A DNA stretch of 64,000 bases from Marinobacter excellens HL-55 (GCA_001314845.1 LJZQ01000005.1:107755-171754); one strand, 5' to 3'; numbered from the stretch's first letter, positions 37,930-40,454 are shown. Program-made: numbers and translations. Notes: generated by a model not told the origin, from the letters alone.

Positions 37930-38064
37930 TTGCGGCGCCTGCCCCCTCAACAGCAACTGCTCGGTCTTGATCATTTCACGCCCTGAAAGCGCCACCATGG
38001 CAGACTCAGGGCCCGTTTCCGGTTAGCATTGCCTGCTTTACTTTTTTTAATGGGCTCGCTATCC

Positions 38065-39150
38065 ATGTCTGCACTGACCAACACACACGACGTCCTTGTT
38101 CGTAACCTTGAGCTGCTGCATGGGCAGGTTGCGCTGCTGGGCGTTTCCGATCCGGCGGTTCTCTCACATTGTGGCACCACCGGACTGGCGATGAGCGAGC
38201 ATGCCGGCATATTCGAGGTGCTGGCCCAGGTGCCCGGATGGCAAGCCTGCTATGGTTATGACGCCCACCAGCTTGAGCCCGCAAGTTACGATACCGTTGT
38301 AGTTTTTCTTCCCAAAGCCCGAGCCGAATTAACCTTGCGCCTGACCATGGCCCGATTTTTGGGTCGGGCCGGGGCCCGGCTGGTGATGATCGGCGAGAAA
38401 AAAGAAGGAATCGCCGGTGCCGTCAAGCAGTTTCAGGTGATTGCCGATAACGCAGCCAAAGTGGACAGCGCCCGGCATTGCCAGGTTTGGGTCGGCGGCA
38501 ATCAGCAGCCGCTGGCCGAGTTCGTGGTGGCAGACTGGATAGGCTGGACCGATGTGGATTGTGCCGGTGTAGGGTGTTCGGTTGCAGGAATGCCTGGAGT
38601 GTTCAGCGAGGGTTCGCTGGATGGTGGCTCCCGTTTGCTGCTGCAGACGCTTTCTGAGAAGCCCCTTAAAGCCGACCGAATTCTGGATTTTGCCTGTGGT
38701 GCCGGTGTCATTGGTACCTGGCTGCACGCCGCCAGACCGCAATCGACGCGTGAGGGTCTGGTTGTCGATGGCGTTGAGGTTCAGGCGCAGGCGGTGATGT
38801 GTGCCGAGGCGACCTACCGCAAAGCGGGCGTTAACGGGCGAATATACTCCTCGGATGGCCTTGCCGGCCTTGAGGGGAGATGGCAGGCGGTGGTGAGCAA
38901 TCCTCCGTTCCATAGTGGCGTAAAGACTGATACCTCGATGACCGAGCAGTTTCTTCGGGAAGTGGCTCAGCACCTGGAGCCTGGTGGCGAACTGCGCCTG
39001 GTCGCCAACAGTTTCCTGCCCTATGAAAGTGAGATGCAACGGCAGATTGGCGCGGTCGAGAAGCTGGCTCAGGATCGAAGATTTACCGTATACCGGGCGT
39101 TCCGTCGCGGTGGTGCTGGCGTTTTGCCCATAAAAAAGCCCCTGGGGTAA
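38065..39150 (+). CDS. rsmC: 16S rRNA m2G1207 methyltransferase RsmC-like
   Basis: [52 protein letters not shown]. Confidence 0.88.
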
Positions 39151-39155
39151 GGGGC
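39131..39155 (-). terminator. Intrinsic terminator on the minus strand overlapping the rsmC stop
   Basis: Minus-strand GCCCC-TTACCCCA-GGGGC-TTTTTT. Confidence 0.75.
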
Positions 39156-39237
39156 GAAGGGTAATGTCCGGAAAAATGCCGGGTATCCGGGTGTGAAGAG
39201 CCGGATACCGTAACCGGAAAGGGTGTTCGGCGTGAAC
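39131..39237 (-). ncRNA. Candidate ~105-nt structured sRNA
   Basis: CTAAGTT -10-like element, 5' mini-hairpin, perfect 9-bp stem GGTATCCGG/CCGGATACC with CU-rich loop, outer TCCGG/CCGGA stem, 3' terminator. Confidence 0.5.
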
Positions 39238-39317
39238 ATGTATAACTTAGGGCTTATTTCTAGAGTAAACAGCCTAGAATCCCCAAATTGTGTGAAATTC
39301 GGAAAAGGTTGCCCGAA

Positions 39318-40454
39318 ATGACAAGCGCCAGAGTTGAGTTCGTTACGGGTGAGATGATCCTGTCCAGACCGGGTGTCGAAGACGACACGCTGCGCGCCTG
39401 GGATGCGGCAGACGAACTCCTGCTTGAGCAGGCGCTAAAGATATTGCCCGTTGGCCAGAGCCGGGTGCTGGTTGTCGATGACCAGTTTGGCGCGCTTACC
39501 CTGGGGCTTTCCGGATATGCACCTTGTACTGTTGCAGACAGCGCGGTATTGGCCGGTGCTCTGAAAGCCAATGCGGCGTTGAATCCAGACCTTCCAGAAC
39601 CCTCATTGCCCTTAAATTGGCAGCGCCCGCCCGCCGGATCGTTTGATCTTGTGGTGATGCGTATTCCCCGGCAAGCCGAGTACCTGGGTTGGCTGCTGCG
39701 TTGGGTTAACCGTGTTCTGGGTGAGGATGGTTATTTGTTGGCCGGGGGCATGATCAAACACCTGCCGGAACGCAGTGTCGATGTGTTTGCCGGCGCGGTG
39801 ACCACCCGAGCCGTCCTTCCCGCTCGAAAAAAAGCCAGAGTGGTGGTTTGTCAGCGTGGGCCGGCAACGCTGGCGGAATGGCCTGGCACCTGGAAAGGCT
39901 ACTCGATGCCGGGACTGCCGATGCCGGTTGAGGCGATGCCGGCGGTCTTTGCCCGTGACAAACTGGATATCGGTACACGGGAGTTGTTGCCCTTGATCGC
40001 GCCGGTGGTGGCGCAACTGCCTGAATACTCCAGGGTGCTTGACCTGGCTTGTGGTAACGGGGTTCTGGGTTTGACGGCACGGGCCTGTCGGGATGATATT
40101 GAGGTGGATTTCAGTGACGTGTCGAGTCAGGCCATTGCCAGTGTCCGGCATAATCTGGCGGGTGCTGGCGGAGGCGTCCGATCAACACTGTTTCATGGTG
40201 ATGGCATTGACGAGGCTGCCGGCCAGTATCAGCTCATCCTGCTCAATCCGCCGTTTCACGAGGGTGGCGTTGTCGGCGACCACATAGCCCTGCGTCTATT
40301 CCATCACGCGGCTGAGCACCTGGCTCCCAATGGCCAGCTACTGATGGTTGGCAACCGCCACCTGGGCTATCACCAAACCCTCAAGCGCTATTTCGGTCGC
40401 GTTGAGCAGCGGGGTGCCAGCCCTCGATTTGTGGTCTTTGAGGCTCGCCGTTGA
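39318..40454 (+). CDS. rlmG: 23S rRNA m2G1835 methyltransferase RlmG-like
   Basis: LRAWDAADELLL, DDQFGAL, VFARDKLDIGTR, LDLACGNG, LNPPFH, VGNRHLGY. Confidence 0.88.
   Translation: MTSARVEFVTGEMILSRPGVEDDTLRAWDAADELLLEQALKILPVGQSRVLVVDDQFGALTLGLSGYAPCTVADSAVLAGALKANAALNPDLPEPSLPLNWQRPPAGSFDLVVMRIPRQAEYLGWLLRWVNRVLGEDGYLLAGGMIKHLPERSVDVFAGAVTTRAVLPARKKARVVVCQRGPATLAEWPGTWKGYSMPGLPMPVEAMPAVFARDKLDIGTRELLPLIAPVVAQLPEYSRVLDLACGNGVLGLTARACRDDIEVDFSDVSSQAIASVRHNLAGAGGGVRSTLFHGDGIDEAAGQYQLILLNPPFHEGGVVGDHIALRLFHHAAEHLAPNGQLLMVGNRHLGYHQTLKRYFGRVEQRGASPRFVVFEARR

Follow-up and report, generated by a model that had tools for sequence, protein, structure and literature searches.

We analysed a 64,000-nucleotide (nt) stretch of DNA from Marinobacter excellens HL-55 (GCA_001314845.1 LJZQ01000005.1:107755-171754; the window, to whose positions all coordinates refer), in which two methyltransferase-like genes, here called rsmC and rlmG, lie on the plus strand. 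The spacer between them carries on its minus strand (39239-39132) what we take, on balance, to be a free-standing gene for a small non-coding RNA (sRNA) of ~106-108 nt, which would occur genus-wide and represent the Hfq-type base-pairing remnant of a protein gene, gene X, that other species still possess. The parts of this reading differ in strength: that a functional RNA-producing unit exists at the locus appears highly probable from its conservation, and base pairing in trans as the specific mechanism is a proposal that we place close to, and slightly below, an even call.

The locus in M. excellens HL-55

The features of the locus are given below, those of the minus-strand unit before the flanking open reading frames (ORFs).

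39257-39276, minus: conserved promoter block TAGGCTGTTTACTCTAGAAA (in most species a single copy per genome, with 0 mismatches)
39249-39244, minus: -10 hexamer TAAGTT, with C at position -13 (39250), hence CTAAGTT at 39250-39244
39132-39239, minus: predicted small RNA of ~106-108 nt (between an invariant -10 and an invariant terminator; fold; selection on the body)
39238-39224, minus: GUUC/GAAC mini-hairpin (sequence reading, RNAfold)
39230-39237, minus: 5'-terminal octamer GUUCACGC, a candidate seed (conservation in a 70-species clade)
39214-39223, minus: C/U-rich stretch CCCUUUCCGG (invariant in 12 type-D species)
39167-39218, minus: structured middle domain with outer stem UCCGG/CCGGA (39218-39214 with 39171-39167)
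39182-39209, minus: inner perfect 9-bp hairpin GGUAUCCGG-CUCUUCACAC-CCGGAUACC (arms 39209-39201/39190-39182, loop CUCUUCACAC; a clade-specific insertion)
39132-39155, minus: intrinsic terminator GCCCCUUACCCCAGGGGC + U6 (hairpin GCCCC(U)...(A)GGGGC, 39155-39138; U6, 39137-39132)
38029-39150, plus: RsmC-like methyltransferase ORF, convergent with the RNA (ORF listing; best NCBIfam match RsmC)
39318-40454, plus: RlmG-like methyltransferase ORF with ATG at 39318, divergent from the RNA (best NCBIfam match RlmG)

The unit had been noticed in the HL-55 sequence alone, and the original prediction of an unannotated non-coding minus-strand transcript with its own promoter and terminator is supported by the comparative evidence presented below. 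Its individual elements are likewise all present: the -10-like CTAAGTT, which is the HL-55 form of a genus-invariant C-TAnnnT element, the mini-hairpin, the outer stem, the 9-bp stem and the terminator with U6, with the full structure being recovered by RNAfold (-34.8 kcal/mol, z = -3.6; 2 of 200 shuffled sequences fold as well). The RNA would begin at 39239-39237 and end within the U-tract at 39137-39132. In the predicted fold the octamer GUUCACGC makes up the 5' arm and loop of the 39238-39224 hairpin and is partly inside a predicted 5-bp hairpin; the first part of CCCUUUCCGG is single-stranded, and its UCCGG part is an arm of the outer stem. On the single sequence the terminator scan returned 2 terminator-like sites against 1.1 expected, and fold and terminator taken together are only modestly above chance there, with neither strand nor significance settled: it is conservation, rather than the HL-55 sequence alone, that gives the case its weight.

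The names of both flanking genes are provisional, since the two ORFs score well under the NCBIfam equivalog cutoffs (RsmC-like, 373 amino acids, 202.6 bits versus 295 for RsmC; RlmG-like, 137.9 bits versus 468 for RlmG); each ORF also matches the model of the other. The terminator scan found only minus-strand terminators in the spacer, such that rsmC is without one on the plus strand and the terminator of the RNA opposes both flanking genes, as had been described originally. The rsmC stop codon TAA sits inside the loop of this terminator: the last 6 codons and the stop overlap it, and ~19 nt of the 3' end of the RNA overlap the 3' end of rsmC. This antisense overlap with the rsmC stop, also part of the original prediction, is therefore present in HL-55 but is not general, as rsmC stops ahead of the terminator in type C species and a few genomes carry a different upstream gene. 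The order rsmC-like, RNA, rlmG-like itself recurs in most Marinobacter species examined. In the HL-55 clade the RsmC-like ORF is ~14 codons longer (39107-39150, plus) than in type C species, where it ends ...RRS*; the longer form crosses an A-tract into the minus-strand terminator loop, and coding sequence and terminator thus overlap.

Conservation across the genus

BLAST searches of 121 species of the genus gave matches in 92, and ~100 loci were fetched and oriented. Two sharply conserved blocks were apparent, separated by a variable distance, and the common plan on the minus strand consists of the promoter block, 7 nt, TAnnnT, 6-7 nt, the RNA body, the terminator and 6-9 U.

The genus form of the promoter block is TAGGCTGWTTAYTCTAGAAA, a 20-nt sequence that is unique in the HL-55 genome. 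Exactly 7 nt past it, TAnnnT was found in 99 of 99 unique sequences, with C at position -13 in 89 of them. These sequences contain 20 different -10 hexamers in which the T, the A and the last T are the only fixed positions, a pattern characteristic of a functional -10 element. CTGTTT, 17 nt ahead of the -10, could serve as a weak -35; the motifs of sigma-54, sigma-32, sigma-28 and sigma-E and the iron-starvation box, checked by eye, did not fit. In the 15 species that we term long forms, the same promoter stands directly upstream of the conserved gene X on the minus strand, which argues that it fires on this strand. Because a candidate rlmG -10, TAGAAT (39275-39280, plus), overlaps the block at its other end, the block is probably a back-to-back promoter pair for the RNA and the rlmG-like gene; TAGAAT/TAAAAT is kept across the genus, but the last base is T in only ~75% of sequences. 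Between the two divergent -10 elements there is an imperfect palindrome, TTCTAG-N10-CTAGAA (39258-39279; left arm TTTTAG in about half of the species), which could act as an operator common to both promoters. Neither the block, the TTCTAGAA palindrome, the terminator nor the 5' motif has a second copy elsewhere in the HL-55 genome, and hence no regulon can be derived from them.

Sequences resembling the block were seen at other loci. In four species without an exact copy of it (L116-L119; genomes G116, G039, G006 and G087), the look-alike palindromic motif TAGAGTGATTACTCTATAAA lies near position 701 upstream of an unrelated gene and is followed by its own hairpin-terminator-like sequence; these sites may be another small unit with related promoter architecture. 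Six species share, at a locus other than this one, a second variant of the block with the identical sequence TAGGTTGTTCACTCTAGAGA (G114:C33:152575-152594, G037:C11:1396691-1396710, G175:C1:918644-918663, G014:C20:134125-134144, G009:C2:836979-836998 and G062:C136:5584-5603).

The second conserved block is the terminator, which in ~100 species is near-invariant as GCCCCU(C/U)ACCCCAGGGGC (GCCCCUYACCCCAGGGGC) followed by 6-9 U, with even the sequence of the loop being kept, although this is not needed for termination. The motif occurs once per genome in Marinobacter, HL-55 included, and had 0 matches when ~390 genomes from 156 further genera of the order were searched. Directly ahead of it stands the U/C-rich CCCUUC in HL-55, and CUUUU or CUCUU across the genus. 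The features by which an Hfq-type sRNA is recognised, a Rho-independent terminator, a U tail of at least 6 and a U-rich stretch just upstream, are accordingly all found at this 3' end.

In order to assess selection on the RNA body, from which promoter and terminator were excluded, species of the same body type were compared inside three clades. Identity of the body within these clades is 0.81-0.92, compared to 0.25-0.45 at the four-fold degenerate sites of rlmG, which are saturated, and 0.57-0.76 for the RlmG protein, which thus falls below the RNA body. Judged by this comparison, the body is under purifying selection. Within the 70-species clade, 59 of 64 unique bodies have GTTCA beginning 6-7 nt past the -10, 41/64 have GTTCAYGC and 62/64 a CCYUUU-type stretch; the C/U stretch is also present in the 3' untranslated region (3'UTR) of the long forms L038 and L103. 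The original prediction had regarded the 5' mini-hairpin as an element in its own right: its GAAC arm is missing in type A species and in part of type C, and the conserved item is thus the 5' sequence GUUCAYGC rather than the hairpin.

Covariation across Marinobacter, named in the original prediction as a means of checking it, was found in two hairpins. The inner 9-bp hairpin shows double changes in 5 of 9 pairs among the 12 type-D species, which share the HL-55 body type, with 96.6% of cells paired and a covariation score reached by 0 of 500 shuffles; the other three type-D helices are uninformative because they never vary. A penultimate hairpin beside the terminator (GGUA..UCC / GGA..UACC) is common to 53 loci of other body types and shows double changes in 7/9 pairs, with 97.9% of cells paired; on each measure, 0 of 500 shuffles came up to the observed value. 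For this hairpin RNAalifold gave no helix on a MAFFT alignment, in which the arms were misaligned, and a covariance-model alignment was used instead. The middle domain of the HL-55 RNA aligns to this hairpin in the covariance model (R1) with 43 bits, its inner hairpin appearing as a large loop insertion, and a search of the HL-55 genome with the model of the 3' module returned this locus only (43 bits; next best 21). The idea that the CUCUUCACAC loop is the seed did not survive this comparison: the hairpin that carries it is a clade-specific insertion, and sister species have a different hairpin.

Known RNA families and repeats

The RNA matches no family of Rfam 15. At permissive thresholds the best hit in the window was TarA (RF02537) with 18.7 bits against a gathering score of 80, and seven related loci likewise remained sub-threshold (TarA, 28.7 versus 80; ncS54, 24 versus 43). 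TarA has a similar length and general layout and gives a weak full-length match on the correct strand, but by these scores the RNA is not a member. No dispersed repeat of the repetitive extragenic palindrome (REP) or miniature inverted-repeat transposable element (MITE) kind was found, the spacer being single-copy in the 3.78-megabase (Mb) genome by BLAST, pattern search and covariance model. No description of a Marinobacter sRNA at the rsmC-rlmG locus was found in the literature that was searched.

Origin from gene X

In the 15 long forms (L038, L046, L051, L057, L058, L063, L070, L089, L093, L097, L101, L103, L109, L110 and L113), a minus-strand ORF of 136-148 amino acids, gene X, has the promoter block described above on one side and the hairpin and terminator on the other, the latter module following directly after the gene X stop codon or within ~60 nt of it. 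The covariance model matches short and long forms alike. Gene X encodes a conserved, probably helical protein with the motif MIxDSxK...ATYDLRKKLWWDANMMTAY. It has no relative in Pfam, NCBIfam or PDB, and in a collection of 5.8 billion proteins it is represented only by 'hypothetical protein' entries from Marinobacter and Tamilnaduibacter; Marinobacter sp. NP-4(2019) is one of the carriers, and the gene was not found in the HL-55 genome.

In order to place the two states relative to each other, a tree was built from the N-terminus of RlmG (211 columns) with another genus as its root. Basal positions in this tree are held by the long forms, which are paraphyletic and among which is a member of a different genus (L113). 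Short forms alone, starting GUUCAYGC, make up a clade of 70 species (SH-aLRT 89). A second clade of short forms, type B (support 99), resembles the product of a near-precise ORF deletion that kept the stop-proximal TTTCAGG, and the short forms L054 and L112 are placed among the long forms L038 and L103, with a hairpin variant common to these only. A single clade of all short forms was rejected with p-AU 0.0008, a value obtained on the 211 columns for a group named after the tree had been seen. From this topology the gene-bearing state appears to be the ancestral one. Since the long forms are basal and paraphyletic, L054 and L112 fall among them and a single clade is rejected, the coding part probably disappeared on more than one occasion, with the promoter, 3' hairpin and terminator staying behind. 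At L114, from genus g4 with genomes of ~7 Mb, a partial promoter block TAGGATGATTATTCTAAAAA lies ahead of a gene X-like ORF (...LGADLDNEDRSL...), which suggests that both gene and promoter are older than the genus; no terminator of the Marinobacter type was found at that locus.

Mechanism and alternative explanations

In the mechanism that we propose, transcription would start 6-7 nt past the C-TAnnnT element (TAAGTT, 39249-39244) and end at the terminator (39155-39132). The resulting RNA would present the octamer GUUCACGC, the C/U-rich stretch CCCUUUCC, the structured middle domain and a U-rich 3' end; the octamer, the C/U stretch or both would base-pair in trans with target messenger RNAs (mRNAs), probably close to ribosome-binding regions rich in G and A, while Hfq would occupy the terminator and U tail. 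A terminator with its U tail is the usual Hfq-binding module, and an hfq gene is present in the HL-55 genome (77% identity to E. coli Hfq). An Hfq-type base-pairing sRNA of 106-108 nt thus appears the most likely product.

Several observations weigh against this proposal. The plus strand of the spacer folds more stably than the minus strand (-44.7 kcal/mol, z = -4.0), and G-U versus A-C exceptions in the two hairpins (8:3 and 5:4) lean only weakly to the minus strand, such that strand assignment by energy or by G-U counts is not decisive. The consensus promoter scan found no sigma-70-type site at the locus, because a good -35 is missing. The covariation count for the penultimate hairpin (A5) uses an alignment that was itself fitted to the covariance model. 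From clade to clade the middle of the RNA is very different, and in some species only ~45 nt are left, consisting of 5' motif, C/U stretch and terminator: at the scale of the genus, much of the body is thus dispensable. Finally, none of the ~3,250 crude translation-start regions covered by a duplex scan stood out as a target. The distribution is smooth (mean -14.4, standard deviation 4.3, best -29.9 kcal/mol), the top matches are long, gappy duplexes, and rlmG and rsmC rank in the middle (1848 and 2365), making the target prediction uninformative. Mimicry of the ribosomal RNA (rRNA) substrates of the methyltransferases was considered separately and dropped; the rRNA segment used as query had no match in the assembly.

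An alternative role for the RNA is that of a cis-antisense regulator of the GadY type, which would pair with a possible rsmC read-through transcript and set the rsmC:rlmG ratio, either by duplex formation and RNase III cleavage or by interference between convergent transcripts. The co-directional flanking genes, the restriction of spacer terminators to the minus strand, the recurrent gene order and the overlap of the last ~19 nt of the RNA with the 3' end of rsmC would all suit such a role. For perfect complementarity in cis, however, the sequence need not be conserved, whereas both body and 5' octamer show strong conservation; furthermore, the overlap with the rsmC coding end is not maintained in type C species or where another upstream gene is present, and in the long forms a whole gene lies between the two methyltransferase genes. 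We therefore regard this role as unlikely.

The unit could also be a functionless remnant, its promoter kept for the overlap with that of rlmG and its terminator kept against antisense transcription running into rsmC. That it derives from a lost gene, that bodies from different clades are very unlike in length and content, with as little as ~45 nt left, and that the duplex scan found no targets are all consistent with this. Against it stands a body that is 81-92% identical where synonymous sites are saturated and is more conserved than the RlmG protein, together with hairpins kept through compensatory changes, a conserved terminator loop that termination could dispense with, and the conserved 5' octamer and C/U stretch. 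It is on account of this purifying selection and these compensatory changes that we give a remnant devoid of function little chance.

We attach still less credence to an RNA that binds a protein or acts as a sponge, in which the hairpin and terminator module would dock a 3'-end-binding protein or sequester another RNA. Such an RNA would explain why the structured 3' module and its loop are the most conserved parts, and would agree with the lack of a clear mRNA target in the duplex scan. The sequence nevertheless has no known protein-binding motif, such as repeated GGA loops, and in Rfam it matches neither Csr/Rsm and 6S nor any other protein-binding RNA; ProQ, searched for with one query sequence, had no match in the genome.

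The functional strand itself could be the plus strand, with the hairpins serving as a stabiliser of the rsmC 3' end, as an atypical terminator or as an rlmG leader. The more stable plus-strand fold speaks for this, and covariation alone is blind to strand. What fixes the minus strand is that a U-tract always follows the hairpin there, whilst on the plus strand there is none and an A-tract precedes the hairpin instead; that the TAnnnT signature reads on the minus strand only; and that in 15 species promoter and hairpin/terminator bracket a minus-strand gene, the hairpin and terminator coming after its ORF. The candidate rlmG -10 moreover lies downstream of the structures, and the G-U exceptions lean to the minus strand, which makes a plus-strand element very improbable. 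A small protein can practically be dismissed: the 56-codon minus-strand ORF (39239-39069) does exist and begins near the predicted 5' end of the RNA, but, as the original prediction had suspected of it, neither this ORF nor a shorter one appears to be coding, given that it has no ribosome-binding site and no protein-family match, its ATG is missing in most species, indels of 1 nt separate the bodies of close relatives and different body types read through the terminator in different frames, and by this comparison the RNA body does not encode a conserved protein.

Comparison with known regulatory RNAs

The Hfq-dependent sRNA proposed here can be set beside several known systems. GadY of E. coli is an RNA of ~105 nt encoded on the opposite strand between co-directional genes, overlapping the 3' end of the upstream gene. 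Size, antisense position in a spacer, 3' overlap and sigma-S-like promoter features are shared with the predicted Marinobacter RNA; the two are not homologous, however, across the genus the overlap with the end of the upstream coding sequence is not kept, and the strong sequence conservation argues for more than pairing in cis. RybB and OmrA/B are Hfq sRNAs with a 5'-terminal seed and resemble the Marinobacter RNA in having a conserved very 5' end, a variable middle and a conserved terminator; again there is no homology, and the seed role of the 5' end is here that of a candidate only.

Small RNAs derived from the 3' ends of mRNAs, a class that has been reviewed (PMC9438474), are comparable in a different respect, as in the long forms the C/U stretch, hairpin and terminator are the 3'UTR of gene X. 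CpxQ, SroC and DapZ are examples of this class. They differ in that the HL-55 locus has no ORF, so that its RNA would arise as a primary transcript at the promoter of the former mRNA and not as a processed or internally promoted fragment.

The closest parallel in evolutionary terms is OxyS, which arose from a peroxidase mRNA (Krieger et al. 2022; PMC8825220). As described there, OxyS lies at the site of a former protein gene, divergent from a conserved neighbour, and retains the promoter region and a fragment of its parental mRNA, and the same applies to the RNA analysed here. The two RNAs are without homology in sequence or structure. They also differ in that the neighbour is a methyltransferase gene rather than the regulator of the sRNA, and in that the parental gene X is without known function and its ORF was apparently lost several times within one genus. 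Taken together, the comparative evidence supports the element being a bacterial sRNA born from an mRNA.

Implications

A more specific history, which we put forward tentatively and hold to be possible rather than probable, is that the 3'UTR module of gene X was already a regulatory RNA in the ancestor of Marinobacter, with the ORF then being deleted independently in several lineages. If this is true, each deletion turned an mRNA into a stand-alone sRNA under the control of the parental promoter, and the genus would represent a living series from the full gene through a precise ORF deletion and an RNA of ~105 nt to a minimal RNA of ~45 nt, in which the birth of an sRNA from an mRNA would be directly testable. 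An sRNA of the kind proposed would be a new regulator common to a whole genus of ecologically important marine bacteria, which are associated with hydrocarbons and biofilms. Of greater importance than this single gene is how the unit evolved: the same promoter and terminator enclose a protein gene in some species and an RNA alone in others, which would provide a second, independent example of the OxyS-type route from mRNA to sRNA, and one that is experimentally comparable.

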